From the NCBI GenBank assembly GCA_964476155.1, contig CAYYYS010000009.1, positions 18,147 through 82,146 of the forward strand: DNA of 64,000 bases, written 5' to 3'. The stretch's first letter is position 1. Each line of letters begins with the position of its first letter. The position numbers and the translations under genes are program-made. The notes under the pieces were generated by a model. The model did no database searches, was not told the origin of the DNA, and saw only the letters and a program-made list of their open reading frames with translations. This document shows positions 3,747 through 48,436 of this stretch, piece by piece. The DNA comes from an uncultured Fibrobacteraceae bacterium (GTDB lineage: Bacteria; Krumholzibacteriota; Krumholzibacteriia; LZORAL124-64-63).

Positions 3747-6700
3747 ATGCCCAGACGTCTTATCCTCGTCGCGACCCTGATATTGATGGTCGCCGCCACG
3801 TCAGTATTTGCTACAGAGGCCCTGTTCTGCCGCTATCCGGCCATAAGTCCCAACGGGTCCACGGTGGTCTTCTCGTATCAGGGCGACCTGTGGAGCGTGT
3901 CGGCCGACGGCGGCCGCGCCCTGCGCCTGACCGCGCACCAGGCCTACGACGGCTGGCCCGTCTTCGCGCCCGACGGGGAGAGCGTGGCCTTCGCGTCCGA
4001 CCGTTACGGAGACTTCGATGTCTACGTGATGCCGGCCGAGGGTGGCCCGCCCACACGTCTCACACACGCCGAGACCACCGACCGGCCCCAGGCGTTCGGC
4101 CCCGACGGCGACGTGGTGTATTTCTCAGCCCGCCGTCTCTTCGACTTTCCCATGGCGAACCAGATCCTGTCGGTACCCGTCACCGGCGGCACGCCCCGGC
4201 GCCTGGCCGACTTCTTCGGCGACGAGGTGGCCACCGTCGACGGTCGCACCTTCGTGGTCGCCGAGGGCCGCGTGGCCAACGGTCGCGTGCACTATCGCGG
4301 TAGCTATCAGCGCGAGCTCTTCCGCTGGACCCGCGGCGGCGATCCGGTCGCTCTGACCGAGAACCGCGGCTACGACACCCACCCCATGGTCGCGCTCGAC
4401 GGGCGGATCTACTGGCTCGGCGACATGGACGAGAGCAAGACGGCCAACGTATGGGTCATGGACGGCGACGGTGGCGGCAAGCGGCCGCTTACCGATTACG
4501 AGGGTGAGCCCGTGCGGACGGCCTCCCTGAGCACCGACGGGTCGCGTATCGTCTTCGAGCAGGGGCTGCACCTGTACGTGATGGATACTGCGGGCGGCGA
4601 GCCGCGACGGTTGAGCGTGGACGTGGCGGCCGACGCGATCGAGAATCCCGTCGTCATCGAGACCAAGACCGGCGACGCCGATTACATCGCGGTCTCGGAC
4701 GACGGCGAGGAATACGCCCTGGTCGTCGACGGCGAGATCGTCCTGATCAACAAGGAACAGGGCGGTCGCGCGACGGTAGCCGTGCCCGGTCCCTGGCTCG
4801 AAGCCGACATTTCGTTCCGACCAGGCAGCGCCGACACCCTGTTGCTGGTCAGCGACCGCGACGGGGAGAACACCGTCTGCCTGCTGGTGAGCGACGACGA
4901 CGAACCACTGCTGCGCAAGTCCCGCAAACATCGGCTGATCGAGCTGACCGACAGTAAGGATCCGTGTCACGTACCCCAGTGGTCGCCCGACGGAAAGCGC
5001 ATCGCCTACCAGCACGGCAACGGCGACCTGTATGTCATGGACGCCGACGGTCAGAACGACAAGACCATCGCCAAGTACTGGAACCTGGGCGATTTCTCAT
5101 GGTCCCCCGACGGCCGCTGGCTGGCCTTCTCGCGCCTGGACCCCGACTACAACAGCGAGATCTGGATCGTCCCGAGCGAGGGCGGCGAACCCGTCAACGT
5201 GACGCGGCACCCCGAGTACGACGAAGGCCCCGTATGGTCGGCCGACGGCACCGTGCTCGCCTGGCACACTACGCGCCATAGCCATTCGCCCGCCAGTCGT
5301 GAATACGACGTCTATGCCATGTACCTGCGCGAAGCGGATCATGACCGCACCCAAGAGGCATGGGAAATCCTTGAGAAGACCCGCGACGACAAACCCAAGG
5401 ACGAGAAGAAGGACGATGACGAAGGGGACGATGAAGAAGAGGCCGAGGAGGAACTCGTGGTCGAGATCGACTTCGATGAGATCCACCTGCGCGCCCGTCG
5501 CGTGACGTCGCTGCCCGGCAGCGAATACGCCAGCGCCATAGACCCCAAGGGCGACAAGATCTACTTTACCGCCAGGATCGTGGAGGACCGCGACCTCTAC
5601 TCGGTGAACCGCTTCGCCGAGGACCGCGAGGCCGTCACCGAGGGCGGCGTCAACCCGAGCGGGATCACCCTGGACGAGAAGGGCAAGACCTTCACCTTCC
5701 TGCGCAACGGCGCCCCCGCGACGGTCGGCGCCGACGGCGGCAAGGTCGAGTCCACCGATTTCACGGCCCGCCTGGTGGTCGATCGCCCCGCGGTGCGCCT
5801 GCGCACCCTCGACGAGGCCTGGCGTACCATGCGCGACCGTTTCTACGACCCGGACATGCACGGCGTCGACTGGCCGGCCATGCGCAAAAAGTACGGCGCC
5901 TGGGTCGCCCATGCGTCCTGCGACCACGACTTCGGCGACGTGATGAACTTCATGCTCGGCGAGCTCAACGCCAGTCACATGGGCTACCGTCCGCGCTGGG
6001 AGTCGCCCGGCGACTACGGCGACGACGGTTGGCTCGGCCTCGAATTCGACTTCACCCACAAGGGGAAGGGCCTGAAGGTGGCCCGCGTGCTGACCGACGG
6101 TCCCGGCGACAAGGCGCCCGACCGCATCCTGCCCGGCGATGTGCTGCTCTCGGTGGATGGCCGGCCGGTGGGTCGCGACGTCAACATCAGCGCAGCGCTG
6201 GAAACCCGCTCCGGGCTGCCCACATGGGTAGTCGTCAAACGCGACGGTGACGAGCTCGAGTTCCAGGTCACGCCCCGGGGCTTCCGCACGATCTGGACCC
6301 TGAACCACCGCGACGCCGAGCGCGCCAAGCGCGCGATCACCGAAGAGTCCAGCGATGGCCGCGTGGGCTACGTCCACATACAGGGCATGGGTTTTTCGGA
6401 AGTGGAGCGCTTCCAGCAGAACCTCTTCGCCGCCGCCGACGGCAAGGAGGCCCTGATCATCGACGTGCGCAACAACGGCGGCGGCTGGACCACCGACCTG
6501 ATGTTGACGATTCTCAGCCAGCCCGTCCACGCCTTCACCGTCGGCCGCGACGGCGAAACGGGCTATCCCCAGGTGGAACGCCAGCCCTTCTATCGCTGGT
6601 CGAAACCCGTGGCCGTGATCTGCAACGAGGGCAGCTACTCCAACGCCGAGATCTTCAGTCACGCCATCAAGACCATGGGCCGCGGTCCGGTGATCGGCAT

Positions 6701-10206: not shown

Positions 10207-10280
10207 GGCAAGCCGCGCCACGCAGTTACCCGTGTAAATAACGACCCGGCGGGGGGCGCTGCGGCCCCCACCTTTTTTCG

Positions 10281-11027
10281 TCACACCTCCCCAAGCCCCA
10301 TCGCCACCCCCAACCGCCCCATCATCTCCGTCGCCGCCCCCTGCAGAAAAATATCCGTCGTCCCCGCGGTAAACAGCGAAGGCTCCGGATTCACCTCGAT
10401 AATCGTCGCCCCTCCGTTGCGCGCCACACCCGGCAGCATCGAAGCCGGCGCCACCTCGCCCGTCGATCCGATCACCAGCATGACGTCACACGCACTCGCG
10501 GCCGCGAACGACTTGCTCCGCGCCGGCTCCGGAATCCCCTCGCCGAAGAAGATGAAGTTGGGTTTGAGCAACCCGCTGCATTCGCACAGGGGAGGCAGCG
10601 TGTCGAGCGACACTTCGCCCACCGGGTATGTGGCCCGGCAAGCCAGACACACCAAGGTGCGAGAGTTGCCGTGAAACTCCCACACCGTCCGGCTGCCGGC
10701 GTCGCGGTGCAGGTTGTCGATGTTCTGGGTGATGACCTCGCGCAGTATGCCCGACGCTTCCATCTCCGCCAGTATGCGGTGCGCCGCATTGGGCGCCGCC
10801 TGACCGAAGAAGTCGTAGAAGATCTCCTTGATCACCGTCCATGAATCGCCCGGGTGTCGGAGAAAAAAGCCCAGCTCTATCGATTCGGGATCGTAGCGGC
10901 TCCAGATCCCGTCGGGGCCGCGGAACGTGGGGATGCCGCTTTCGACCGATACGCCCGCACCCGTAAAGGCCACCGCGTGATGCGCGTTCAGAAGCGTTTG
11001 TGCGGCCTGTTCAATTCGATCCTGCAT
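10281..11027 (-). CDS. cobB: NAD-dependent protein deacylase, Sir2 family (CobB-type sirtuin).
   Basis: GAGVSVESGIPTFRG, QNIDNLH, zinc-ribbon cysteines CLAC...CECS, GSTGEV. GAGGGGA RBS before ATG at 11027. Confidence 0.85.
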   Translation of the reverse strand: MQDRIEQAAQTLLNAHHAVAFTGAGVSVESGIPTFRGPDGIWSRYDPESIELGFFLRHPGDSWTVIKEIFYDFFGQAAPNAAHRILAEMEASGILREVITQNIDNLHRDAGSRTVWEFHGNSRTLVCLACRATYPVGEVSLDTLPPLCECSGLLKPNFIFFGEGIPEPARSKSFAAASACDVMLVIGSTGEVAPASMLPGVARNGGATIIEVNPEPSLFTAGTTDIFLQGAATEMMGRLGVAMGLGEV

Positions 11028-11185
11028 GATCGTCCCCTCGGCTCCTGCGCCGGCCATTCCGGCGCTGCGCCCAGACTAACATGCGGACGATCACGTCACC
11101 ACGAATGGCGGATCAAGAACCATGGCCTGCAGCCGATCATATCGAGAAAACTGGCCATGGTCCTGACCCGTCGCTAGTCCAGACT

Positions 11186-11296
11186 GCGGACGAGGACATT
11201 TTGCCGCGACCGCAGGGACGCAAAACGGCCGCCTCCAGGGCGGCCGCTTTGCTTGATCGCTACACCCTGCGGCCGCGGCAACATGCCCTCGTCCGC
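11186..11296 (+). repeat. Nested-hairpin repeat element, copy D (sense orientation). ~32-bp outer stem, ACGC, GC-rich inner hairpin (CGGCCGCC-TCCAG-GGCGGCCG), core GCTTGATCGCTACA, stem partner.
   Basis: Outer arms GCGGACGAGGACATTTTGCCGCGACCGCAGGG and CCCTGCGGCCGCGGCAACATGCCCTCGTCCGC are near-perfect reverse complements. Core matches copies A and B at 13/14 nt (a single T/C difference). Confidence 0.75.
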
Positions 11297-11309
11297 ATCC
11301 GGGTAGGTA

Positions 11310-13241
11310 TCACTTCACCATGACCATCTTATGGGTGGAACTCTCGTTCCCGGCCTCGACACGGTAGAAGTAAGTGCCGGACGACAACAGGCGCCCGTTC
11401 GCGTCACGGCCGTCCCAGACGGCGGTCTGTTGACCGGCGGTCTGCGTGCCATCGACCAGGACCCGCACCAGGCTGCCGTCCACATCGAAGATCGACAGGC
11501 GAACCTGCTCGTCGCGCGCCAGCTCATACCTGATGACGGTCTCGGGATTGAACGGGTTGGGGTGGTTGCCCCGCACCATCAGCAGTTCCGGCGCCGGGTG
11601 GTCGACCGAAATGGTCGTGCCGTCCAGGTCGGTCAGGAAGCCCGTGGCCGCGTTCTGCACCTTCCAGGTTTCGTCGTTCTGCACGTAGACCGTCGCGCGC
11701 AGCTTCGAGTAGACCCAGGATTCGGCGCTGACCGGACAGTGGGCGTTGAAGCGGTGGATGCCGGGTGTGTTGGGCACCAGGAAACCATCGGTGTCCGGAT
11801 ACATGTAGCGGAACGCCTGGTCATGATAGCGCTCGCCGTTGGTGCCCACTTCGTAGACATCGTCCTCGGTGATCGCCACACGCAGCTTGAGGATCCAGTC
11901 GGCGGGAATAGGCTCCACGATTTCCACTTCGGTGATCAGGGTCTCGGTGACCGGATCCCAGGAGTGCCAGATGTTCAATGGGCTGTGATGGGTCTTGCGC
12001 GTATTGAACAGCGACGCGTATCCGGCTCCGTTGGAACCGGCGTCCACGACCTGGTCGATACGTAGGTGGGGCGCATAGTCGGCGCCGCTACCGTTGGCCA
12101 GGAAATTGTTCTGCAGCGTGTTCGCATCGTAGATGCCGTCCGAGCCGGGCCACCAGACATGCACGCGCACCAGGGCCACTTCGTTGTTCTGGCCGGGGAA
12201 GTAGGCGTCCAGGGCCTGGTTGGCTTGCGGGCAGCCGGAGCAATCCGATTGGGTCAGCAGGATGCCCAGGGGCACGTGCGGTAGGGTATAGGAATCGTCG
12301 AAAGCCGTCGCCTCGTTGTTCGACGTATCCATGTCCGTACCCAGCAACGCCACCGCATGCAGATCGTAGTACTGACCCGCGTTCGTGGTCAGGTTCGGGA
12401 AGCCGACGACCGTTTGGGTCTCGGGAGCCAGGGCGGCCACATTGACTGTTTCGTTGTACACCTGCACGCCTGTTTCCCAGATCGTGACTTCCACATCGAA
12501 GTCTTCGATGCTGCGACCGATGTTCTTCACGGTGACCTGGGGCGCTATGACTTCGCCACTGGCGAACTGTTGCTGGTCTGGCGTTATGGAAAGCGCGCGG
12601 ACATCGTGGAGCCAGGGCTCGTAGACGCGTACGTCGTCCACCCACCAGTGGTCGGCGTAGGAGCCCGTGTAACGCAGGGCGACGTAGACCGTCGGCTCGC
12701 CCGCGTAGGCGGAGAGGTCGATGATCACCGGATCACCGTCGAAGCCGTTGACCGTGTGGGTTGCCGGCGTCATGTCCGAGACGATGGCGAACGTGCCCGT
12801 GTCGGTTTGGCTGGTGGTGCTGACCATCACGTAGTGATGACTGCCCCAGTCCGCCCAATACGACTCCGTCTCGAAGAACTCGAGCCGGATGTCGGTGAGG
12901 CCCGTGAAGTCCAGGGCCGGCATGACCAGCCACTCGTTCTGTGTCGTTCCCTGTGCACCGTATTGGACGAAGGCGCTGAAATTTCCGGTGCGCGCCTCGT
13001 AGTTGCTCTGGACCCACTGGTAGGTGTTGCCCAGGTGGATGCGGTGCCAGCCCGTGGGCGGGAAGGTGCCCTCGAAGCCCTCGGTCAGGAGGTCTATGCG
13101 ACTGGGAGAGAAGGCCGGTCCGTCGGCTCGTCGGTCGGGATTGTAGACCAGGTCGTCGTGAGCGATCGCCACGGTCGTACCCAGCAGCAGAACCGACGTC
13201 AGGATTAAAACCGTACGAACGAGGAGGCTATGGTTGGACAT
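11310..13241 (-). CDS. Secreted T9SS cargo protein: N-terminal choice-of-anchor/MAM-like domain, C-terminal T9SS sorting domain.
   Basis: Signal peptide MSNHSLLVRTVLILTSVLLLGTTVAIA after AAGGAG. GFEGTFPPTGWHR. C-terminal NPFNPETVIRYELARDEQVRLSIFDVDGSLVRVL..GTYFYRV. Confidence 0.75.
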   Translation of the reverse strand: MSNHSLLVRTVLILTSVLLLGTTVAIAHDDLVYNPDRRADGPAFSPSRIDLLTEGFEGTFPPTGWHRIHLGNTYQWVQSNYEARTGNFSAFVQYGAQGTTQNEWLVMPALDFTGLTDIRLEFFETESYWADWGSHHYVMVSTTSQTDTGTFAIVSDMTPATHTVNGFDGDPVIIDLSAYAGEPTVYVALRYTGSYADHWWVDDVRVYEPWLHDVRALSITPDQQQFASGEVIAPQVTVKNIGRSIEDFDVEVTIWETGVQVYNETVNVAALAPETQTVVGFPNLTTNAGQYYDLHAVALLGTDMDTSNNEATAFDDSYTLPHVPLGILLTQSDCSGCPQANQALDAYFPGQNNEVALVRVHVWWPGSDGIYDANTLQNNFLANGSGADYAPHLRIDQVVDAGSNGAGYASLFNTRKTHHSPLNIWHSWDPVTETLITEVEIVEPIPADWILKLRVAITEDDVYEVGTNGERYHDQAFRYMYPDTDGFLVPNTPGIHRFNAHCPVSAESWVYSKLRATVYVQNDETWKVQNAATGFLTDLDGTTISVDHPAPELLMVRGNHPNPFNPETVIRYELARDEQVRLSIFDVDGSLVRVLVDGTQTAGQQTAVWDGRDANGRLLSSGTYFYRVEAGNESSTHKMVMVK

Positions 13242-13481
13242 GGCCGAATCTCCTTGGCATGTGAACAAGTGTTGGAACTCGCGAGGGTAAGACACTGTGG
13301 CCTTGATCTCTAAAATCCCTACAGACGATAGGTATTTTACAGGATTCGCCTGATATTTACAAGCCCCCTTAGATATTTAAACACTTTTTTGTCGGCTAGC
13401 GAGGTCGATGGAGTGCATGAAATCCACAAAATCCACTAAGACCGCAAAAAGGGTGTCTAACAAATCTATTCGACTACCACT

Positions 13482-13591
13482 GAGGACATAGACAATTCGC
13501 CACGACCACGGGGTGTAGCAATCAAGCGAATCGGCCGCCCTAAAGCGGCCGATTCGCGTCCCCGTGGTCGTGGCGAATTGTCTATGTCCTC
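13482..13591 (-). repeat. Nested-hairpin repeat element, copy A, inverted relative to D. Its terminal arm overlaps the stop codon of the upstream minus-strand gene.
   Basis: Perfect 32-bp outer inverted repeat GAGGACATAGACAATTCGCCACGACCACGGGG / CCCCGTGGTCGTGGCGAATTGTCTATGTCCTC. Core GTGTAGCAATCAAGC. Inner hairpin GCGAATCGGCCGC-CCTAAA-GCGGCCGATTCGC. Confidence 0.8.
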
Positions 13592-14204
13592 AATGGTTGT
13601 CGAACCCCGCTTTGACCATGCCCCAACTCCATTGCTCCGCGGCGATAGGGTTGCAGGGCAGTGCCGGGAAGACACCATTCACGCGCCCGAAGGCCTGATC
13701 CTGACCGAATTTCTCGCTGAGCAGATCGTTGGGTTCGTCGATGGGCCAGGGTGCCAGGTCGGACCAGAACGTGAATACGGCCACACCGCTGCGGCCGGGC
13801 CTCACCTGGCTGTCGTCGGTGGGGACGTACTTGATGATCGGCACGTAGATCTGCAGGTCCGGGTCACCGCTCATGTTCAGTTCGGCGTCGAAGTAGATCA
13901 ATCCGTTCACGCCGAAACAGCGAGCCGTACCCGAGGGATTGTCCCAGCGCACGTACTCGAGGATATCGTCGCGCGAGCAGTTGCCCCCTTCGTCCAGCTT
14001 CAGGTTCAAATGGCTCAGCGAGAATTCGGAGTAGTTGTTCCAGGTTACGCGCATCTCGTAGCGCCAAATGCCGCGCGCGCCGGGTTCAGCCTCTGAAGCC
14101 ATGATCGTGCCGTAAAGCTGTGCGTTTTCGGCGACTGCGGCTGTAGTGATCAGCATGGCCGCGATGAGGGCGATCTTTCCGATGTGCCTTTTGCAAGCTA
14201 TCAT
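13590..14204 (-). CDS. Secreted hypothetical protein with signal peptide.
   Basis: N-terminal MIACKRHIGKIALIAAMLITTAAVA. No recognisable domain. 204-aa ORF with normal composition. Confidence 0.55.
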   Translation of the reverse strand: MIACKRHIGKIALIAAMLITTAAVAENAQLYGTIMASEAEPGARGIWRYEMRVTWNNYSEFSLSHLNLKLDEGGNCSRDDILEYVRWDNPSGTARCFGVNGLIYFDAELNMSGDPDLQIYVPIIKYVPTDDSQVRPGRSGVAVFTFWSDLAPWPIDEPNDLLSEKFGQDQAFGRVNGVFPALPCNPIAAEQWSWGMVKAGFDNH

Positions 14205-14358
14205 GTCAGCCTTCCCGTATTATGCGTGATCCGTATCGTTTCTCGTGCGAATCGTATGTGACTCTTCGTTTCTTCTGATTTATCGGGATGTCTCGTACGG
14301 CACCCTCTAAGTAGTCGGGTAGCAAGAAGCGAGCCTTAGCAAAGGATTTGAACGCGCT

Positions 14359-15111
14359 GTGCTTTTTTACTCATGGAACGTCAATGGAATCCGCGCGGCC
14401 CTGGGCAAGGGATTCAGGGGATTCTTCGATGCAGAATCACCGGATGTCATTTGTTTACAGGAAACTAGAGCGTTGCCTGAGCAGGTGGATTTTGCGCGCG
14501 AGGGATATCACGCCTTCTGGAATCCAGCCGAGAAAAAGGGCTATTCGGGGGTCGCCACATTCACGCGACACGAGCCGTTGCGCGTGCAAAATGGAATGGG
14601 TATCGAAGAGCACGATCACGAGGGTCGGGTGCTGACTCTGGAATTCGGGGACTTTTTCCTGGTCAACGTCTACACGCCCAATTCCCAGCGGGATCTGGCC
14701 CGTCTCGATTATCGCCGACGCTGGGATGCCGACTTCCTGGCCTTCCTCAAGGCTCTGAAAAAAGAGAAACCCGTGGTCTTTTGTGGCGATCTCAACGTCT
14801 CCCACAAACCCATCGACCTGACCAACCCCAAGCCCAACCAACGCAACGCCGGCTTCACGATCGAGGAACGCTCCGGTTTCGACAATCTGGTCGGCGCGGG
14901 TTTCATCGATACCTTCCGCGAATTCGAGAGCGGTGGCGGTCACTATAGCTGGTGGACCTACCGCAACGATGCCCGTCGACGGAATATCGGCTGGCGCCTG
15001 GACTATTTCCTGATCTCCTCCGCCTTGCGCCCGCGACTCGCACGCGCCTGGATCCTGGCCGAGGTCATGGGCTCGGACCACTGTCCGGTGGCCATCGATC
15101 TGTCCCTTTAG
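14359..15111 (+). CDS. xthA: Exodeoxyribonuclease III (Xth/APE1 family AP endonuclease).
   Basis: MLFYSWNVNGIRAA, CLQE, NVYTPN, GDLNVSH, WTYR, SDHCPV motifs. GTG start. Confidence 0.9.
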   Translation: MLFYSWNVNGIRAALGKGFRGFFDAESPDVICLQETRALPEQVDFAREGYHAFWNPAEKKGYSGVATFTRHEPLRVQNGMGIEEHDHEGRVLTLEFGDFFLVNVYTPNSQRDLARLDYRRRWDADFLAFLKALKKEKPVVFCGDLNVSHKPIDLTNPKPNQRNAGFTIEERSGFDNLVGAGFIDTFREFESGGGHYSWWTYRNDARRRNIGWRLDYFLISSALRPRLARAWILAEVMGSDHCPVAIDLSL

Positions 15112-15437
15112 CCCGGATTATTCATGAATGAGGTGGGCTGCGGATTCGTGGTTAAGTCTGTATGATTTCAACTGATTGAGAGCTCACGTACTTCGAAGGC
15201 TCCGTGAAACCGGAGCCGGCGGCTTGATATGCTGTTTGGTCGAAGGTGAGTCGATGGGCCTGAGCACAATGGTAGTGGGGAGAAATCAGTCGCTTAGTCG
15301 AGCGACCGTCCACGCCTGACCGCTGATGTCTTGCCATTTGTCTGTAACAAATATATACTGAATTACTCTGATATCTAGATAGTCGACGATACCGGTTTCC
15401 CGGTGTCGTTTTGAATCTCCCCGGAAGGAACAAGATC

Positions 15438-27101: not shown

Positions 27102-27323
27102 ATCCTATATCCGGCTCTGTGTATTGCTACTGCGACAAAGCCGGGGATGTGTGTGACCATTTACGGGGAACGCTCTCCGGTCACATCCTGTGACCGGGTC
27201 GCTTGGCCTGCGGGCTGCTCCGCCATCCATGGCTCCGCAGCCCTTCGGACATCCCCGTAAATGGTCACACACATCCCCGGCTTTGTCGGTAGTAATACAC
27301 AGAGTCGGGTACAGGATTTAGAC
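27097..27323. repeat. Giant ~225-bp palindromic element: ~75-bp inverted arms (~93% complementary) around a centre with nested hairpins. Sits between the convergent pyk and SRAP genes.
   Basis: Left arm GTTAAATCCTATATCCGGCTCTGTGTATTGCTACTGCGACAAAGCCGGGGATGTGTGTGACCATTTACGGGGA. Right arm is its reverse complement with a few mismatches. Centre has CCGGTCACA-TCC-TGTGACCGG and GGGCTGC...GCAGCCC hairpins. The GGGA-ACGC junction resembles the A/B/D family. Confidence 0.75.
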
Positions 27324-27328
27324 CACAG

Positions 27329-28051
27329 TTATAACAGCTCCAGTTGATCGCCGGGGGCTTCGCCCGGCTCATTCATTGGCATCACACACTCTGGCCCATC
27401 ATTTCGCGGACTGTTCACCAGGGTGTCTACCGGCCAGGCTTCCATGGCTTCGGCGGGGAAGGGTTGTAGCAGGTCTCGCAGCCCGGCGGTCGCGTCTGGC
27501 TGCGCGGTGAGCCAGCGTTCGTAGTCGTTTCGGTGGAGGATGACGGGCATGCGGTCGTGGATGGGGCGTAGCAGGTCATTGGCTGTGGTGGTCAGGATGG
27601 CGCAGGTGTGTCGCGGGTCGCCGGCGGCGGGGCGCCAGGTCTCCCAGAGCCCGGCCATGCAGAATCCGGGCTCGTCTAGAACCCGGAACAGCCAGGGATG
27701 TTTCTGGTCACCGCGTCGTTGCCATTCGAAGAACGCTTCGGCGGGGATGAGGCAGCGCCGCCGTTGGTAGGCTTCGCGAAACGAGGGCTTCTCGGGCGCC
27801 GTCTCCGACCGCGCGTTGATCATGCGGTTGCCGACGGCCGGGTCCTTGGCCCAACCCGGCACGAGCCCCCACTTGAAGGTGCGGGCTTCGCGGTCGGTGT
27901 CGGGCGTGTCCTGAATCGCCGCGACGATCTCCTGGCCCGGCGCGATGTTGTATCGCGGGCGCAGGCCCAGTTCCAGATCGAGAGCCGCGTCCAGGGCCAT
28001 GAGCTGGGCCAGTTCCTCGGGCGACAGCGCCAATGTGAATCGTCCGCACAT
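27329..28051 (-). CDS. yedK: SOS response-associated peptidase (SRAP / YedK family, abasic-site DNA-protein crosslink protein).
   Basis: Invariant N-terminal MCGRF. AAAGGAAAC RBS. ~240 aa. Confidence 0.85.
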   Translation of the reverse strand: MCGRFTLALSPEELAQLMALDAALDLELGLRPRYNIAPGQEIVAAIQDTPDTDREARTFKWGLVPGWAKDPAVGNRMINARSETAPEKPSFREAYQRRRCLIPAEAFFEWQRRGDQKHPWLFRVLDEPGFCMAGLWETWRPAAGDPRHTCAILTTTANDLLRPIHDRMPVILHRNDYERWLTAQPDATAGLRDLLQPFPAEAMEAWPVDTLVNSPRNDGPECVMPMNEPGEAPGDQLELL

Positions 28052-28298
28052 GTTGTTTCCTTTCACGAACGATCAAGATAACACACCCACGGTCGATAAT
28101 AATGACCTGTCCGCGCCATGGGGCGAGGCAACCCGCGCTCTGTTCTGACGTATACGTGATTTGGTGCGTAACCCGGCCCGGAGGGGAGCCGCCATAAGGT
28201 CAAACAACCCCACCAAACTCTAACTCGTTGATTGACGGGCCCCTTGCAGGATCCTTGCACATGCCTCCTGGCGCCAGAAACAAGGCAACCTAGTTTAA

Positions 28299-33579: not shown

Positions 33580-34092
33580 CTAATTGCACATAAGATAAGG
33601 ATACCCCCAGATCTCGCTCAATACCGTGCGCAACTTGGCCTTATTCTGTTCGATTGTCAACTCGTAATGCATACTTATCCATTTATTTGTTGCATAATTA
33701 GTTATCAAGCTCCCCCCGAAGACCCGTTTCAACAGAGCGCTGGTTCGAGCGACGTGATCGCAGCGAATCCGTCCCTCTTCCGAGGCGAGCGTTTGGAAAA
33801 GTCCGTCCAGTGTCCTGTCGGTTATGTATTCCGTGAGATTCAGCGAGGGTTTGTCCGTGAAGGGGAGCAGGTCATAGAGATCGAGCAGGGATTCGTAGTC
33901 GTAGTAAAGGCCGATTTCGCCCATGGTGTCGGCGACGATGGGCTGAAAGCGAGCGCGTAGGCTGTTCTCGGTCGCGTTCCGGAAGTAGATGGTCGCCACG
34001 GCGCGACCGGTACCGACCGCGAGGGCTTCGCGCAGACCAGCCGCCACGGTCTCTTCGTCCAGCGGCGCCTGCAGGAGGTCACCCCAACCCAC
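33580..34092 (-). CDS. Hypothetical protein; the 3' third is unusually AT-rich.
   Basis: 170-aa ORF. No recognised domain. The C-terminal ~50 codons fall in an AT-rich stretch (33580-33720) unlike the rest of the window. Confidence 0.45.
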   Translation of the reverse strand: MGWGDLLQAPLDEETVAAGLREALAVGTGRAVATIYFRNATENSLRARFQPIVADTMGEIGLYYDYESLLDLYDLLPFTDKPSLNLTEYITDRTLDGLFQTLASEEGRIRCDHVARTSALLKRVFGGSLITNYATNKWISMHYELTIEQNKAKLRTVLSEIWGYPYLMCN

Positions 34093-34161: not shown

Positions 34162-34278
34162 TGGGAGGTCGTGGGTGTGATGTCGCGACCGTAGGGTGTA
34201 GCAATCAAGCAAGCCGGCCGCCCTGAAGGCGGCCGGCTTGCGTCCCTACGGTCGCGGCATCACACCCACGACCTGTCC
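34162..34278 (-). repeat. Nested-hairpin repeat element, copy B, same orientation as A. Immediately 3' of the C25 peptidase gene.
   Basis: Outer arms GGTCGTGGGTGTGATGTCGCGACCGTAGGG / CCCTACGGTCGCGGCATCACACCCACGACC (one mismatch). Core GTGTAGCAATCAAGC. Inner hairpin AAGCCGGCCGCC-CTGAAG-GCGGCCGGCTT. Confidence 0.8.
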
Positions 34279-34288
34279 GATGTATCAA

Positions 34289-37200
34289 CTATTTCGTCAA
34301 CAACATCTTGAGAGTGAGCTCATCCCCATCATGCCGTAAACGCGCGAAGTACACGCCCGAAGCAACGACACGACCGTTTTCGTCGGTGCCGTTCCAGGAC
34401 ATCGTATGCCGGCCGGAGTCCATGACGCCCCGGTGGAGCGTGCGCACCTGGTGGCCGCGCACATCGATGACATCCAGGGTCACGTCGCCAGCGCGGGGCA
34501 TGGCGAAGACGATCTCGGTCGCCGGGTTGAACGGGTTCGGGTAGTTGCCATTGAGGGTCAACACCCGCGGCGTGTCCGCGTCGGTGCCCGTCTCCACGAT
34601 CATCGTCACGGTGACGACCTCGGGGGCGCCGCCGCAGTTGTGATCGATCAGGACATAGGCCGTGTAGGTGCCGTCGGCTATGCCGGTGGCGTCGTAGTTG
34701 ATGTCCACGTTCTGGTAGCCGTTCTGGGGCAGGGTGCCCTCCGTCGGGTTCACGGTTAACCAGGTGACCATCTCGAACAGGGCGAACTCGGCGTCGCTGG
34801 TGTCGGTGATGGCGTCATCGAGGCTCGAGACGCGGATCAGGGCCGTCGTGGTGTTCGGGCCGGCCAGGGTGACCGTTTCGGTGCCGTCGTTGGGTGTCGA
34901 GGCCACGAGGGTCTCCCAGGTGCCGCCGCCGTTGCGGCTCAGCTCGATCTTGACCGTCGACAGGTCGCCCGCGTGGTCCCAGGTCACCGCATAGTCGTTG
35001 CCCCACGCCAGGCTCTCGCCGCCGTTGGGGTAGGTCACCGTGACCGACGGACCGGAGGCGGTCATGCTGAAGGTGCCGCTCAGGTCGTGGGGTGTCGATC
35101 CGTAGATGTCGCCCTGGACGAACCAGCCGAAGGTCTGTTCGCCGGTCAGGGAGCCGTCGAAGGTCACGTTGAGTGTACCGGTGGCCGTCTCGCCGCCTCG
35201 CAGGGCGCCCCAGCTACCCCCGTCGGTGCCGTGCCAGTTGGTGGTTACACCGTCGCCGGTGGTACCGGTCCAGAGCAGGGGATCGGTGCCGCCGCTCAGG
35301 GTGGTGGCCGAGTTGACCGTGACGCCCGCGGGGACGGTGATTTCCGCGTCGGTCAGCCACTCGACGTCAGTGCTGGCGTTGTAGACCGAAATGTCCAGGT
35401 CGACGGTCGAGCCGGCCAGGAACTCGTTCTGGCCGCAGGTCACCGAGGAGCCGGCCACGCTCTTGTCGGCCTTCTCGTAGGGATTCTCGGCCTGATAGGT
35501 GATGCTGAAATTGAGCTGGGAGTCGGGCTCGCCCAGGTTGGAAATGCGCAACGCGTCGGTGTCGGTCGCGCCCGACTCCAGGGTGGTGGAACAGGCCGTG
35601 AAGCTCAGGTCGATGGCCGGCGAGGCCATCAGCACGTCTTCTATGTGCGGTTCCATGTTTTGGGCCGTGACGACCATGTGCAGGGGCAGGCCGCCGTCGG
35701 GGGTGACCAGGAAGTCGACGACCACTGTACCCGTTACGCCGACGGTACCGCCGCCGACCAGGGTCGTACCCTGGCTCAGACCGACGTAGCTTCCGGGTGA
35801 CGCGCTGACCGTCAGCGAAGTCGAGCCCATGGCGTCGACGGTCACGGGGTTGACGCTCGGCACACCCATGTAGGTGCTCAGGCTGGGGTCGCCCATCAGG
35901 TTGTAGATGTTCCAGTAGTACTGGGTGCTGCCCGAGCCCGCCTCCTGGACGGCCAGGTTGCCGGAGAAGATCAGGGCGTCGTTGGTCACGTACCACAGGT
36001 CCATGCCTTCGCCGTGGTCGTGGAAGATGCCGTCGTAGGCGCCCACACCCGTGTCGGCGAACGGGATGTTACCGTCGATGATCCCGGAGGGGCAGGAGCC
36101 GGCGCCCCACCAGAAGTCCTCGTCCCACTGCGTATTGTTGCTGGCGCCGATGTAGCCGATGCCACCCTTGTCGACGGCCCGCAGCCAGGTCTCGCCGAAG
36201 CACTCGCCGTAGTCATAGGTCCCTGTCAAACAGCAGTTGCCGATGGCCAGACAGTACTTTTCGGAATTACCCAGGTTGTTGATGTCCGATTGGGTAAAGC
36301 TGGGGTCGGACCAGTTGGTCTGGCCGCCGTGGGCGGTGTAGTTGATGAAGGCCACGCCGTCGCTCACGGTCTGGACAATGGCGGCGTCCACGCTGCCGCT
36401 CGAGGCGGGATAGAGCCAGGTGTTGCTGGTGATGCCGTGGGCCGCGTTGAAGTAGTTGTCGGTGCCGTAGTTGATCTGACCGTTACCGTGCGTCGACGCA
36501 TAACCATAATCCACGCCGGCGATCAGGGTCACTTCGCCCAGGTAGCTGGGATCGGACATGGTGAACTGGTCGTACATCAGGGTCTTGTCGATCATCGCCT
36601 GCAGTTGCGAGGCGTTGGTGGCGGAGAAGCGGCCGTAGTAGATGTCCGGCACGTAGTCGCCGTCCATGGTGCAGTAGGGGCGGTCGGTGGCGTCGCCGCC
36701 CACGGAGTAGGTGGGCATCTGGGCCACATCGCCCACGAAGAGCACGAAGCTGGGCGCCGGTTGTGAGGCCGTGGCGTTATCGTACAGGTCCTGGATGTAG
36801 CTCTGGATCGACGTGGTGGTCGAGCCGACCTCGGGAGTGCCCGTCACCGCGAGGATCGTGTTGAAGCCGCGCTGGGTCTTCCAGTTGACGAAGTCGGCGA
36901 GCTGGTACTCGAACTCCGGCGGCGTGACGATGACCATGGTCACCAGATCGCCGACGTGGTCGGGGTAGCTGTCGTGCAGGCCCCGCGAGCCGTCGAGCTG
37001 GGAGTAGAGATGATCGAAGAAGGGACTCGCGGTCCGGGCGTACAGGTCGCCGCCGGCGCTATTGTCGCCGCCTTCGTAGATGATCTCGAGCTCGGCGCTT
37101 TCGACGATCTCCAGTTCACCGGTGCCCGGTCGGTAGGTTACCGGTGCGAACTCGAGGCGTCCGAAGTCCATGGCGCGCAGGCGGCCCTGGGGAACGACGG

Positions 37201-37675
37201 TGGCCAGCGCGCGGGTGGTCTTGTCGACCTGGTAGGCGGCCTGGTCGTAGACAAAGGGCCAGGTCTCGCGGTCCGCGTTCTTGGGCATGGACGGCTGGGC
37301 CGGCATGATCAGGGTGTCGATACCCAGATCGGACAGCTTGACCGTGCGGGTGCGCACATCGCGCACTTCGACCCGGGCCGTGGCGCCCAGGGGCAGCGCG
37401 ACCAGTGTATTCATCATGGGGAGCTCGGGGGCACCTTCGGTCCGCGTGGCGTGGAAGCCGGGCAGAACGAGGCGGGTGAAGCCGCCGGCCTTGGTATCGA
37501 CCGCCATGGTCTGGATGTCACCAACCCGGAGATGGTACGTCAGGCCGCCGGTCTTCTGGTCGACCATGGTCATGGTGGAGGTCTCGCCGTCGATGGGTAT
37601 GACGCCCGCCTGGGCGAATCCCGCGGTCATGATGACGATCGTGGCCAGTAGGCCGATGAGCATGTGCTTGGGCAT
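34289..37675 (-). CDS. Secreted C25-family (gingipain-like) cysteine peptidase with C-terminal T9SS sorting domain.
   Basis: Signal peptide MPKHMLIGLLATIVIMTAGFAQA. Peptidase C25 catalytic His region YTAHGGQTNW and catalytic Cys region LAIGNCCLTG. Ig-like repeats. C-terminal NPFNPATEIVFAMPRAGDVTLDVIDVRGHQVRTL..GVYFARL. Confidence 0.8.
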   Translation of the reverse strand: MPKHMLIGLLATIVIMTAGFAQAGVIPIDGETSTMTMVDQKTGGLTYHLRVGDIQTMAVDTKAGGFTRLVLPGFHATRTEGAPELPMMNTLVALPLGATARVEVRDVRTRTVKLSDLGIDTLIMPAQPSMPKNADRETWPFVYDQAAYQVDKTTRALATVVPQGRLRAMDFGRLEFAPVTYRPGTGELEIVESAELEIIYEGGDNSAGGDLYARTASPFFDHLYSQLDGSRGLHDSYPDHVGDLVTMVIVTPPEFEYQLADFVNWKTQRGFNTILAVTGTPEVGSTTTSIQSYIQDLYDNATASQPAPSFVLFVGDVAQMPTYSVGGDATDRPYCTMDGDYVPDIYYGRFSATNASQLQAMIDKTLMYDQFTMSDPSYLGEVTLIAGVDYGYASTHGNGQINYGTDNYFNAAHGITSNTWLYPASSGSVDAAIVQTVSDGVAFINYTAHGGQTNWSDPSFTQSDINNLGNSEKYCLAIGNCCLTGTYDYGECFGETWLRAVDKGGIGYIGASNNTQWDEDFWWGAGSCPSGIIDGNIPFADTGVGAYDGIFHDHGEGMDLWYVTNDALIFSGNLAVQEAGSGSTQYYWNIYNLMGDPSLSTYMGVPSVNPVTVDAMGSTSLTVSASPGSYVGLSQGTTLVGGGTVGVTGTVVVDFLVTPDGGLPLHMVVTAQNMEPHIEDVLMASPAIDLSFTACSTTLESGATDTDALRISNLGEPDSQLNFSITYQAENPYEKADKSVAGSSVTCGQNEFLAGSTVDLDISVYNASTDVEWLTDAEITVPAGVTVNSATTLSGGTDPLLWTGTTGDGVTTNWHGTDGGSWGALRGGETATGTLNVTFDGSLTGEQTFGWFVQGDIYGSTPHDLSGTFSMTASGPSVTVTYPNGGESLAWGNDYAVTWDHAGDLSTVKIELSRNGGGTWETLVASTPNDGTETVTLAGPNTTTALIRVSSLDDAITDTSDAEFALFEMVTWLTVNPTEGTLPQNGYQNVDINYDATGIADGTYTAYVLIDHNCGGAPEVVTVTMIVETGTDADTPRVLTLNGNYPNPFNPATEIVFAMPRAGDVTLDVIDVRGHQVRTLHRGVMDSGRHTMSWNGTDENGRVVASGVYFARLRHDGDELTLKMLLTK

Positions 37676-43615: not shown

Positions 43616-44994
43616 AGATCACCCTGACGGTCAACGAACAACGCTACGACCTGGACGTGCAGCCCTTGCGCCGACTGCTCGACGTACTGCGCGAGGACAT
43701 CGGCCTGACCGGCGCCAAAGAAGGCTGCGGCGAGGGGGAGTGCGGCGCCTGCGCCGTGATCCTGGATGGCAAACTCGTCAACGCCTGCCAGGTACCCGTC
43801 TACCATGCCCATGGTCGGTGTCTGCGGACGATCGAAGGCCTGGGTACACCGGAGGATCCCGATCCCGTGCAGGCGGGATTCGTGCAGACCGGTGGCGTGC
43901 AGTGCGGTTTTTGCACCCCGGGGCTGATCATGGCGTCGCGCGCGTTGCTGAACGAAAATCCCGCACCGAGCACCATGGAGATCCGCACTGCCTTGTCCGG
44001 CAATCTCTGTCGCTGCACGGGCTATGGGCGCGTTGTCGAGGCGGTCCATTGGGCCACGTTGCACGAAGGCGGGGATGTATCGGAGCCGGCTGCACCGACA
44101 CCGGTCACGGCGCCCGTGGCTTCGCCCGACGACCAGGCGGTTGTCCATTTGCCCGAATCGCTTGATGCGGCCCTGGATATTCTGGCCGGAGCCAACGGCG
44201 AGACGACGGTCGTCGCGGGCGCCACGGACCTGTCCGTGTTGATGCACCTGGGGCTGGTCCGTCCCACGGTCGTGCTTGATTTGTCGGGCGTGTCCGAACT
44301 GCAGCGCATCGAGGAAGAGGACAGTCATGTGGTTGTCGGAGCCGCGGTCACTTTTACCGACCTGATCCATTCCCCACTAGTCAATCGGGATCTGCCGTCC
44401 CTGGCCGAAGCGGCCCGTCTGGTCGGCGCGCCGGCGGTACAGAACGTGGGCACCATCGGCGGCAACCTGGTCAACGCGTCACCCGGCGCCGACGCCGTGC
44501 CGCCCTTGTTGGCGTTGGACGCCGTGGTTCGCATCGCTTCGAGCCGAGGCACGCGTGAAGTGCCCGTCGACGCTTTCTACCTGGACTACCGATCCTGCGA
44601 TTTGCAGCCGGACGAACTGGTCACGTCGGTGGCCGTCCCCATGCTCCACGACCGCATGAAGCAGGCCTTCTACAAGGCCGGCACAAGACGGGCCCAGTCC
44701 ATCGCGCGGGTGAACCTGGCGTGCCGCGGACGCCTCGACAAGCTCAACTGTTTGCGTGATGTGCGCCTGGCCGCGGGCAGCGTGGCGCCGACCACCCTGC
44801 TGCTGCGCGAGACCATGGATTGGCTCGAGGGCCGCCAGCTCACACCGCAGGATCTCGGCGAGACCACCCGCGAGGCCGCCGCCGTGGCCGCGCGCGAAGT
44901 GACACCTATCGATGATGTGCGCGCCACGGCCGAGTACCGCCGCACGGTGACCGGGAATCTGGTCGCGCGGTTTTTGCGGTCACTGGTTCTTTAG
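43612..44994 (+). CDS. Fused (2Fe-2S)-binding / FAD-binding Mo-hydroxylase subunit (XdhA-like small-medium fusion).
   Basis: N-terminal CGEGECGAC, CGFCTPG, CRCTGY. C-terminal FAD-binding GATDL, GTIGGNL. GTGA start/stop overlap with the upstream gene. Confidence 0.85.
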   Translation: MKITLTVNEQRYDLDVQPLRRLLDVLREDIGLTGAKEGCGEGECGACAVILDGKLVNACQVPVYHAHGRCLRTIEGLGTPEDPDPVQAGFVQTGGVQCGFCTPGLIMASRALLNENPAPSTMEIRTALSGNLCRCTGYGRVVEAVHWATLHEGGDVSEPAAPTPVTAPVASPDDQAVVHLPESLDAALDILAGANGETTVVAGATDLSVLMHLGLVRPTVVLDLSGVSELQRIEEEDSHVVVGAAVTFTDLIHSPLVNRDLPSLAEAARLVGAPAVQNVGTIGGNLVNASPGADAVPPLLALDAVVRIASSRGTREVPVDAFYLDYRSCDLQPDELVTSVAVPMLHDRMKQAFYKAGTRRAQSIARVNLACRGRLDKLNCLRDVRLAAGSVAPTTLLLRETMDWLEGRQLTPQDLGETTREAAAVAAREVTPIDDVRATAEYRRTVTGNLVARFLRSLVL

Positions 44995-45832
44995 CGGGCC
45001 GATGGATCAGCTGATGGCAGCTCGAGCATAACACCTGAAGATTGTCCGCTTCATTACCGCCGCCCAGCGATCGTGGGCGACGGTGGTGAACCTCCAGAAA
45101 GCGCGTTCGCCCGCAGCCTGGTGTTTCGCAGCGGTGGCTGGCGTGGATCATGGCAGCTTGGCGGGTTTTCGGTGGAATAGTCGAACGGTTAGGCTTGCCG
45201 GGCTCCTGGATGACGGCATCACATTGCACGACCTCGGTTGATATGGGCTTGGGACCACGGTCGGTTTGCACCTCGGACTTTCCACACTTTTTACACGTGT
45301 AAACGACGACTTGATAAGGCGGGCTGGAGACGGCCTTTGTTTCGGACCTTTGCGCAAGTTTCTCCGCAAAGTCGTTCAGCGCGGCGAGCAACAATTCGGC
45401 GCGGTCCATTCCTTTTACAGTCGAGCCTTTTCGGTTGCCTAGTTTGCGGATCGTTTCGAACAAGGCTTCATGACGGGCGTATTGTTCGGTTGTGAGTTTT
45501 GTATTCACCGAGACCGGAGCGTCCGTGGGTAGCGTCGGTGATGGTTCGTCCAAATCCAGCGCAGGCAGCTCCGCAACTTGTGGCGCCTGGCGAGCCCGCT
45601 TGCGAGTTGCTCTTACTGTCTGCTCCAACTTGCGACTGCTCGATCGCTCCGCTTCGGCGATCCAACGTTCTTCACTTTCGGGCGTCGCCACCTTGGCCAC
45701 CTCCCGCGCCTTGGTCCAACCCAAATCACCGGCCGCCACCGATCGACGCAGTTGTGGCCACATGGCCGGGGCATCATCTTGGGCGAGAACCAGAACAGAC
45801 GGATCATTAGGATATCCTCTCCTGAGTGTCAC
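44906..45832 (-). CDS. HNH endonuclease, DUF222-type (13E12-repeat-family-like). Likely a selfish/mobile gene.
   Basis: C-terminal HRCETPGCGRTRFLEVHHRRPRSLGGGNEADNLQVLCSSCHQLIH HNH signature. Helical N-terminus as in DUF222. The 3' end overlaps the convergent xdh gene by ~89 bp. AT-rich patch upstream. Confidence 0.7.
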   Translation of the reverse strand: MTLRRGYPNDPSVLVLAQDDAPAMWPQLRRSVAAGDLGWTKAREVAKVATPESEERWIAEAERSSSRKLEQTVRATRKRARQAPQVAELPALDLDEPSPTLPTDAPVSVNTKLTTEQYARHEALFETIRKLGNRKGSTVKGMDRAELLLAALNDFAEKLAQRSETKAVSSPPYQVVVYTCKKCGKSEVQTDRGPKPISTEVVQCDAVIQEPGKPNRSTIPPKTRQAAMIHASHRCETPGCGRTRFLEVHHRRPRSLGGGNEADNLQVLCSSCHQLIHRPAKEPVTAKTARPDSRSPCGGTRPWRAHHR

Positions 45833-48315: not shown

Positions 48316-48436
48316 TTTACCCGGAGTATTCATGAGTCACCTACTGCGGAGGAGCAGTTTGAGATCTGACAGCACCCTCCTCGTCACGGCAACTCATGAA
48401 TATTCCGGGTAGATCGATCCGCATTTACCCGGAGAG
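48316..48436 (+). promoter_or_regulatory. Putative operator/leader region of the RND efflux operon. Has an 18-bp inverted repeat pair and a third direct copy of TTTACCCGGAG next to the RBS.
   Basis: TTTACCCGGAGTATTCATGAGT ... ACTCATGAATATTCCGGGTA (one mismatch), spaced ~55 bp apart with an internal GAGGAG/CTCCTC complement. GCATTTACCCGGAGAGG lies directly before ATG 48445. Confidence 0.4.

Follow-up and report, generated by a model that had tools for sequence, protein, structure and literature searches.

The window, that is the whole stretch of 64 kb of DNA analysed here, comes from an uncultured bacterium of the FCB group and holds three copies of a nested palindromic element. The genes flanking all three copies are on the minus strand. 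In a first stretch, the order is a 204-aa ORF, copy 2, a T9SS cargo gene of 661 aa, copy 1 and a Sir2 gene. In a second stretch, a C25-peptidase T9SS cargo gene of 1128 aa is followed by copy 3 and by a DUF4197 gene. A plus-strand ORF to the left of copy 1 (10854-11177) is probably spurious, because it overlaps the minus-strand Sir2 gene and has no Pfam match. An earlier reading, made from the sequence only, had described the copies as directly 3′ of genes and in mixed orientation; the closeness to stop codons is retained, but with this ORF set aside the true flanking genes all lie on one strand. The features are listed below, with their coordinates in the window.

10281-11057, minus strand: Sir2 gene, downstream of copy 1
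11185-11297 (11186-11296 by arm ends), plus strand (sense of the core): copy 1, whole element
11186-11217, plus strand: copy 1, 5′ arm of the outer stem P1, with GGG at its end
11218-11219, plus strand: copy 1, AC bulge of 2 nt before the inner hairpin P2
11220-11252, plus strand: copy 1, P2, GCAAAACGGCCGCC-TCCA-GGGCGGCCGCTTTGC
11253-11264, plus strand: copy 1, conserved unpaired tail, TTGATCGCTACA
11265-11296, plus strand: copy 1, 3′ arm of P1, with CCC at its start
11310-13295, minus strand: T9SS cargo gene, 661 aa; its stop is 12 nt before copy 1, and copy 2 is upstream of the gene
13469-13604, minus strand: copy 2, whole element, with 45-nt arms
13469-13513 and 13560-13604, minus strand: copy 2, arms of P1, the 5′ arm running from 13604 to 13560
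13514-13525, minus strand: copy 2, conserved unpaired tail, TTGATTGCTACA
13526-13557, minus strand: copy 2, P2, GCGAATCGGCCGC-TTTAG-GGCGGCCGATTCGC
33580-34092, minus strand: DUF4197 gene, 5′-truncated, downstream of copy 3
34166-34274, minus strand: copy 3, whole element
34197-34208, minus strand: copy 3, conserved unpaired tail, TTGATTGCTACA
34209-34241, minus strand: copy 3, P2, GCAAGCCGGCCGCC-TTCA-GGGCGGCCGGCTTGC
34289-37675, minus strand: C25-peptidase T9SS gene, 1128 aa; its stop is 14 nt before copy 3

The three copies share one architecture. An outer stem, P1 (31-45 bp), encloses an AC bulge of 2 nt, a GC-rich inner hairpin, P2 (13-15 bp), and a conserved unpaired tail of 12 nt, TTGATYGCTACA. 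The 5′ arm of P1 ends with GGG and, after the tail, CCC is followed by the reverse complement of the arm. The elements range from about 110 to 135 bp, and the tail consensus, 12-13 nt long, is T(T/C)GAT(1-2 nt)GCTAC(A/G). P2 is located directly 5′ of the T-rich part of the tail (TTGATT or TTGATC), and no T-run is found after the whole element. Within each arm, a variable middle part separates a conserved outer end resembling GGACGTGG from a conserved inner segment, GCGACCGCAGGG. In some copies, the outer helix is extended by flanking CTAC...GTAG pairs. The core is sense to the upstream gene in copies 2 and 3 and inverted in copy 1. In copy 2, the 204-aa ORF ends within the 5′ arm, which takes in its five final codons and its TGA stop (13590-13592).

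The sequence-only reading had proposed a nested-hairpin family of three with a conserved core, and the copies are indeed present where it placed them. Several of its details have to be revised. Copy 2 was correctly located but its arms were drawn too short, their real length being 45 nt. The inner hairpin, given as 8 bp long, is the P2 stem of 13-15 bp, of which the lower 5-6 bp covary. The inner 15 nt of the arm, described as conserved, are so in copies 1 and 3, but four positions differ in copy 2. Finally, the outer arms were said to differ between copies while remaining paired. These stems do covary, but the whole 31-nt arm is homologous among the copies, and even its outer half retains 50-70% identity.

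Several results argue against a chance origin of these structures. The window contains exactly three occurrences of the 14-mer GCTTGATYGCTACA, for a chance expectation of 0.45 matches when up to two mismatches are allowed. The predicted folds of the copies have energies of -80 to -97 kcal/mol, corresponding to z values of -10 to -17 with respect to dinucleotide shuffles. In a repeat scan of the 64 kb, the five longest inverted repeats of short range include all three copies. A covariance model built from the copies (R1), used over the 64 kb with filters off, retrieved only these three copies, with scores of 114-125 bits, the next match being at 16 bits. As for known families, Rfam 15 gave no match on the elements when the whole window was searched at gathering thresholds. 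At E<=10, the best matches on the two loci L001 and L002 described below were generic hairpins of miRNA precursors (43 bits, for 100 needed). The family is therefore absent from Rfam, and no description of the element was found in literature searches. A TwoAYGGAY RNA (RF01731) was matched elsewhere in the window (27130-27291), just 3′ of a SRAP gene and with a perfect outer stem of 37 bp; literature searches returned no assigned function for this class.

Other identities were considered and set aside. The element is not phage-borne, as judged from viral contigs, where a 17-mer of the element gave eight matches, about the chance number, none of them fitting the covariance model. The tail motifs CTTGAT and TAGCGA had raised the idea of an RCR origin or an oriT; BLAST against plasmids and phages returned only matches of 25-30 nt to GC-rich hairpins. 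A DNA-uptake sequence is not supported either, the conserved 12-mer of the arm not being dispersed outside the elements. Compared to attC sites of integrons, the outer ends are variable and have no R″/R′ motifs (RYYYAAC / GTTRRRY), the copies are dispersed in differing orientations, and there is no integrase nearby. A promoter within the tail, with TTGATT as the -35 box, would have no -10 box at the right spacing, and promoter scans were empty. By inspection, the tail has no consistent complementarity to the P2 loop or to the flanks that would allow a pseudoknot.

A strict gapped pattern was searched in the GTDB representative genomes and in JGI metagenome contigs, and it matched one or two loci in each collection (L001 from GTDB, L002 from the metagenomes). 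L001 belongs to a MAG labelled Fibrobacteraceae; its DNA is 80% identical to positions 34164-36214 of the window and carries an element at the same place. L002 (JGI 3300013112 Ga0171653_1000074, 104.9 kb) is 98.8% identical to positions 10703-14921 and has the same two copies. Orthologous loci were obtained by exact-protein look-up, then searched with covariance models. The further copies on which the sequence-only reading had made its family depend were found by these searches: seven, in at least four related metagenomic genomes. The family now amounts to ten copies, at four gene-end sites and in at least five genomes. A broader model, R2, gave no further members in about 330 kb of sequence, including the window and several overlapping loci. 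The protein homologues are labelled Latescibacteria, Krumholzibacteria or Eisenbacteria, and the restriction of the family to one uncultured lineage is supported. The situation at the orthologous loci is as follows, with protein identities in parentheses.

L004 (flanking protein, 82%): both copies, one of them after a 643-aa gene and in sense
L014 (flanking protein, 62%): two copies, A (plus) and B (minus), after a 642-aa gene
L017 (flanking protein, 66%): one copy, with a scaffold gap within P2
L021 (protein of the C25 gene, 70%): a full copy with perfect arms (33/33) and the tail TTGATCGCTACA unchanged
L005 (74%): element absent, short ordinary hairpins in gaps of 46-54 nt
L019 (75%): element absent, plain GC hairpin and T-rich tail
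L025 and L026 (74%): element absent, plain GC hairpin and T-rich tail
L022 (69%): element absent, unrelated plain palindrome (35/35)
L023 (57%): element absent
L018 (90%): deletion from inside the 5′ arm into DUF4197

Thus, copies are kept at orthologous sites in relatives whose flanking proteins are 62-82% identical. In the L021 copy, GGG/CCC is replaced by GGA/TCC. In L014, the arms of copy A are perfectly paired (35/35) and homologous to those of copy 1. The arms of copy B, also perfect (37/37), are unrelated; this copy is located 1 nt past the stop of a convergent methyltransferase gene, in sense to it. Because the L004 copy that follows the 643-aa gene is in sense, the core of copy 1 in the window is flipped. 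The gene content beside the sites varies among relatives. Three contigs (L001, L015, and L016) end in the element, and L017 is gapped in it.

Covariation was evaluated on an alignment of the nine complete copies. Standard pairs occupy 96.4% of the cells, as compared to 78.7% +/- 1.2 in shuffles and to 37-47% when the partners are slid by 1-3 columns. Changes on both sides are found in 28 of the 47 pairs, for 13.8 in shuffles, and none of 500 shuffles reaches any of the observed pairing measures. The covariation of the stems noticed in the first three copies is therefore confirmed at the level of the family. It is seen in most of P1 and in the lower portion of P2. The seven uppermost pairs of P2 vary little or not at all, with a single pair broken in one copy, and the tail letters GAT..GCTAC never vary.

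The arms behave differently from the core, which is 74-94% identical between copies, for 53-88% in the arms. Between the window and L004, the arms are 74-81% identical, while third codon positions of the adjacent gene are 75% identical; as judged from these alignments, the arm sequence drifts roughly at the synonymous rate. Pairing nevertheless remains at 88-100% in orthologous arms and, overall, 351 of 370 arm pairs (95%) are of the Watson-Crick type. Among the 19 others, nine are G.U on the sense strand, six would be G.U on the antisense strand and four are of other types; a count of nine versus six is uninformative as to the strand of action. Furthermore, a one-base indel that distinguishes copy 2 from its counterpart L004a is mirrored in both arms. 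The complementarity of the arms is actively maintained. Selection for a hairpin, in RNA or in DNA, would have this effect, as would quasipalindrome template switching, a known mutational route by which imperfect inverted repeats are made perfect (PMC7202029), and the two are not exclusive. The arms of copy 2 and L004a also reach 13 nt further than the others, into the coding tail of the upstream gene.

Copies within one genome (paralogs) are 56-87% identical, and none are identical. Variants of the core and tail, among them the tails TTGATYGCTACA and TCGATTYGCTACG, are lineage-specific and common to different sites of one genome. For instance, L014A and L014B have the same tail, TCGATTCGCTACG, despite their unrelated arms. 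Likewise, the lower P2 stem is identical in L004a and L004b but differs in copy 1, the ortholog of L004b. This sharing of core variants genome by genome suggests either concerted evolution or co-evolution with a reader acting in trans.

The position of the element with respect to genes is very regular. All ten copies start 0-22 nt past a stop codon and none is between divergent genes. Nine of the ten are sense to the upstream gene, copy 1 being the exception, a bias that is not statistically strong because only four independent sites are known. In L014, two convergent genes are each followed by a separate copy that is sense to that gene. Together with the nine sense-oriented copies, this arrangement argues that the asymmetric core acts strand-specifically, most simply in the transcript. 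The element is not linked to T9SS genes as such, two of the four sites following genes of another kind (the 204-aa protein and the methyltransferase).

These observations lead us to reconsider termination. The sequence-only reading had held a terminator role to be unlikely in the absence of a U-run. It is correct that no T-run follows the whole element, but P2 and the T-rich tail, taken alone, resemble a terminator. The tail (TTGATYGCT) has four or five T in nine positions, the terminator criterion being at least five T in eight, within 0-2 nt of the hairpin; a terminator scan flagged only P2 and the tail of copy 1. In transcripts cut within the tail, P2 is predicted to stay folded as a 3′-terminal hairpin. 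Moreover, L019 and L025 carry, in the orthologous position downstream of the C25 peptidase gene, plain GC hairpins followed by T-rich tails (TTCTTCATGC and TGTTTCATGCGT), which align with P2, with the tail and with part of the inner 5′ arm. Termination had thus been dismissed too quickly, as nine of the ten copies face the upstream gene and two relatives have a plain hairpin in place of the element. The genome also has canonical terminators made of a hairpin and a T-run, at 10252-10269 and after the gene at 32658.

Considering these properties, we tentatively favour, with slightly less than even confidence, a transcribed 3′-end module, combining a weak terminator, a long duplex dependent on read-through and a loop read by a factor acting in trans. 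With the same reservation, it may be proposed that the members of this lineage-restricted family, in the uncultured FCB-group bacterium as in its relatives, constitute 3′ untranslated gene ends. The presence of the copies, their pairing and their sense position at gene ends are observed; from these we infer every further step, including transcription, termination, and processing. The element would be transcribed together with the upstream gene, and P2 with its U-rich tail (UUGAUYGCU) would act as a moderate intrinsic terminator. Since the 3′ arm is beyond the putative release point, the P1 duplex would close only in read-through transcripts, which also copy this arm. The resulting duplex would be near-continuous over about 46 bp and would carry an asymmetric internal loop of 2 x 12 nt. 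It may serve as a block to 3′-exonucleases, as a processing site of the RNase III type, or both, thereby defining the mRNA end and insulating the next gene, in the manner of the lambda tI/sib site. A trans factor specific to the lineage, either a protein or an RNase, would recognise the invariant loop letters together with the invariant upper pairs of P2; the tail variants common to different sites of one genome are a hint of such a factor. Selection for pairing would keep the arms complementary, probably with the help of template switching at the DNA level.

Some observations do not sit easily with a 3′-end module. The U-tract is poor, and the genome also uses canonical hairpin and T-run terminators. 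The conserved G, A, G, C, A, and C letters of the tail are not required by a U-tract and call for an additional explanation. Copy 1 has the opposite orientation to its own gene. Finally, the lack of strand bias in the G.U pairs and the symmetric indels fit a maintenance of the palindrome at the DNA level at least as well as selection at the RNA level. Two bolder versions may be envisaged, equally, and both are unlikely. In one, the element would be a reusable chromosomal sensor of read-through, a weak terminator within a long duplex. The duplex would form only when termination fails; the read-through transcript would then be cut or capped by a lineage-specific factor, which may be a loop-binding protein or an enzyme of the RNase III type. 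In the other, the element would be a new type of ssDNA substrate, a hairpin plus a tail with a flippable core, used by an unrecognised HUH enzyme or by another recombinase.

The sequence-only reading had hesitated between a REPIN-like mobile hairpin and a structured RNA family. Of the two, the structured RNA is still viable, whereas the REPIN interpretation is not supported. As mobile DNA of the REP/REPIN or MITE type, the element would be non-autonomous and moved by a HUH enzyme (RAYT-like) or another transposase encoded in trans. This transposase would recognise P2 and the adjacent single-stranded, GTAG-containing tail on folded ssDNA, RNA effects being secondary. HUH recognition sites consist of a hairpin and a single-stranded tail, a layout which the element resembles, and the tail read in antisense is TGTAGCRATCAA. 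The repeat is dispersed over at least four sites with homologous arms and core, core variants are common to sites within one genome, and contigs break at the element, as assemblies do at repeats. Moreover, all ten copies lie near ORF 3′ ends of tandem or convergent genes, and places less than 20 nt from such ends are typical of REPs (PMC3733652). However, REP families have a GTAG (or CGTC) tag 0-2 nt from the stem (PMC3733652), whereas the conserved GTAG of the tail, on the antisense strand, is 7-8 nt from P2. The element therefore does not have the form of a REP unit, a palindrome of 20-40 bp with an adjoining GTAG or CGTC. Nor does it have the two inverted REP units with conserved arms of a REPIN, having instead a single asymmetric core. 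The arms do end with GYAG-GG in seven of the ten copies, but with a mirrored polarity (stem, then GTAG 3′). No near-identical copies were seen, none of the three copies in 64 kb being identical, and the strict pattern gave very few loci in each large collection. Orthologous retention over a deep divergence, together with the low identity of paralogs, indicates old residents rather than recent transpositions. No direct repeat or target-site duplication flanks any copy; variable ends and the unrelated arms of L014B also depart from the conserved terminal inverted repeats of MITEs. No Y1_Tnp domain was matched by Pfam in the 30 ORFs scanned from the window, in agreement with the earlier statement that no RAYT gene is present there, nor does any appear among the Pfam annotations of related loci totalling about 200 kb without redundancy. 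Mobility thus seems unlikely, though it keeps some weight.

Three other explanations share part of the evidence. The element could be a free-standing structured ncRNA (sRNA or protein sponge) of a TwoAYGGAY- or drum-like class, transcribed from a dedicated promoter or released from the 3′ UTR by processing, and acting in trans through the 12-nt loop. The strong covariation and the conserved unpaired loop would be expected of such an RNA, several copies per genome would suit a titrating one, and the TwoAYGGAY match of the window is likewise just 3′ of a gene and closed by a long perfect stem. Yet, no promoter-like site was detected by scans at the elements, stop codons are abutted or overlapped by the element, the G.U pairs show no strand bias and no Rfam model matched, so that a free-standing RNA appears quite unlikely. 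Another explanation is a palindrome acting as DNA only. Forming a cruciform or hairpin, it would serve protein binding, supercoiling or recombination, or would simply be a hotspot of rearrangement, and RNA would play no part. Watson-Crick pairing at 95%, equal on both strands, and symmetric indels in the two arms agree with this. So do the flipping of the core within the palindrome between the window and L004, L014, and L017, the variable gene content nearby, and deletions with an end-point in the element or at its edge, as in L018 and, in the window, at the truncated DUF4197 gene. Against a role in DNA alone, which we regard as decidedly improbable, stand the consistent orientation to the upstream gene with tight placement at stop codons, the convergent genes of L014, each with its own sense-oriented copy, and the plain terminators found at orthologous positions in other relatives. 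Such terminators are the starting point of a neutral explanation. In this case, terminator hairpins would have grown outward by template switching, and gene conversion or duplication would have copied them to a few sites, core conservation reflecting terminator constraints only. The copy-specific 13-nt extension of copy 2 and L004a into a coding tail and the unrelated plain palindrome of L022 at an orthologous site are what outward growth would produce, and template switching is known to perfect quasipalindromes (PMC7202029). However, in all copies, from at least five genomes, little or no variation affects the upper 7 bp of P2 and those tail letters that are not U. In addition, the arms are homologous between sites, which indicates copying of the entire unit and not separate growth at every site. 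A purely neutral origin is very unlikely.

By analogy, the element would work most like the co-transcribed palindromes of the REP, ERIC, and Correia types and like lambda sib, while it falls outside the definitions of REP/REPIN, MITE, and attC and of every Rfam family. Similarly to the element, REPs are small intergenic palindromic repeats located within about 20 nt of ORF 3′ ends, where genes are in tandem or converge; they sometimes supply the stop codon, form long hairpins in which complementary changes keep the pairing, and contain GTAG (PMC3733652). They differ by the GTAG, which abuts the REP hairpin and is at a distance in the element, and by the single asymmetric core of the latter. 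In the element, moreover, conservation is highest at the centre and lowest in the arms, the copies appear to be sparse, and no near-identical ones are seen.

The lambda tI/sib retroregulator was reportedly described by Guarneros, Gottesman, Court, and colleagues in 1982-84. There, a terminator hairpin is nested in a larger hairpin, the 3′ half of which is beyond the termination point, and the long duplex exists only in read-through transcripts. As regards anatomy only, the succession of 5′ arm, P2, tail, and 3′ arm in the element is of the sib type. However, sib occurs once, in a phage, and its cleavage by RNase III is proven, whereas the element is a multi-copy chromosomal family with a much longer outer stem (31-45 bp), in which cleavage and termination are putative.

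ERIC/IRU and Correia (CREE/NEMIS) elements are, like the present one, imperfect palindromes of 100-150 bp. They are co-transcribed with their neighbours, form long RNA hairpins and alter mRNA levels via RNase E or RNase III (for Correia elements, PMC2649163), the effect of ERIC depending on its orientation. Both types are MITE-like, occur in many copies in Proteobacteria, and have conserved terminal inverted repeats and target duplications; the element has no sequence similarity to them and, conversely, its ends vary and its centre is conserved. With TwoAYGGAY (RF01731) and drum RNAs, the element has in common a long outer stem around conserved hairpin(s) and unpaired conserved nucleotides, but its core is made of one hairpin and a 12-nt tail, for two hairpins with AYGGAY loops in TwoAYGGAY, and it does not score against that model. 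Intrinsic (Rho-independent) terminators also have a GC-rich hairpin soon after the stop and a T-rich stretch, oriented with the gene. The element departs from them by its weak U-tract, with conserved non-U letters, and by its embedding between long inverted-repeat arms.

What is solid and previously undescribed is a palindromic repeat of gene 3′ ends, in an uncultured FCB-group lineage, whose asymmetric core is conserved while its arms drift and compensate. It overturns nothing in current knowledge. As the family is conserved, covarying, and not in Rfam, it is a well-supported candidate for covariance-model curation. The arms, drifting nearly neutrally while 95% of their pairs are of the Watson-Crick type, bear on the respective parts of selection and template switching in the maintenance of palindromes. 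On a practical level, assemblies break at the element, and its sites are marked by deletions and by changes in gene content. Gene-end signals are essentially unstudied in uncultured FCB-group lineages, here represented by relatives labelled Krumholzibacteria, Latescibacteria, Eisenbacteria, and Fibrobacteraceae, and the element offers a testable case of a terminator nested within a long duplex. If the read-through sensor proved true, retroregulation of the lambda sib type would be a general gene-end device in an uncultured phylum.

Rearrangement end-points are marked by the element. In the closest relative, contig L018, whose C25 protein is 90% identical, a deletion (located at 11481-11540 of L018) runs from within the 5′ arm of the element into DUF4197. 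The DUF4197 gene of the window (33580-34092), next to copy 3, encodes 170 amino acids and is without the N-terminal ~65 residues, the orthologs having 234-236. Gene content varies in the interval from the C25 gene to DUF4197, as it does between the T9SS cargo gene (661 aa in the window, 643 aa in its L004 counterpart) and the Sir2 gene. When this second interval was compared (window 11058-11310 versus 4459-5739 of the related locus L004 and 11929-17466 of L014), no gene was found in the window, one in L004 (a methyltransferase) and six in L014, corresponding to methyltransferases, LuxC, LuxE and a hexapeptide-repeat protein.

Assemblies are broken by the element. Three independent contigs stop at or inside it (L001, end 2053; L015, end 12029; L016, end 12004), and in a fourth, L017, a run of N (5823-5843) lies within the inner hairpin P2. 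Copy counts derived from metagenome-assembled genomes will therefore be too low.

Two ORFs and three further structures of the window deserve mention:

10854-11177, plus strand: ORF to the left of copy 1, overlapping the Sir2 gene (minus strand)
44906-45832, minus strand: ORF of 308 aa, HNH endonuclease domain at its C-terminus
11108-11171, minus strand: second hairpin (GGACCATGGCC...GGCCATGGTTC), shortly after the inverted copy 1 when read in the same direction as the 661-aa gene
48318-48411: upstream of a gene of the HlyD family, hairpin whose arms (TACCCGGAGTATTCATGAGT) measure 20 nt
27130-27291, minus strand: Rfam match to the TwoAYGGAY RNA motif (RF01731)

Apart from the HNH ORF, no gene resembling a nuclease or a mobile element was noticed within the window. 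The plus-strand ORF beside copy 1 has no Pfam match and is probably not a real gene; were it one, the left flank of copy 1 would adjoin the 3′ end of a gene.

After the second hairpin comes TTGATCC, a sequence similar to the tail of the element. The motif CCCGGA(G/T)TATTCATGA, from the arms of the hairpin ahead of the HlyD-family gene, is found again in a palindrome at 15110-15139 and may therefore be an operator common to two loci. The TwoAYGGAY match (46.4 bits for a gathering score of 43) is found directly at the 3′ side of the SRAP gene (27329-28066, minus strand), and its outer stem of 37 bp (27133-27169/27252-27288) is perfectly paired. This motif was described from gut, gammaproteobacterial and clostridial taxa, from all of which the present lineage is distant. 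Finally, the site orthologous to copy 3 in the related contig L022 (13511-13592) carries a plain palindrome unrelated to the element, with perfect arms (35/35) and a 12-nt loop. Long perfect hairpins at the ends of genes seem to be habitual in this lineage.
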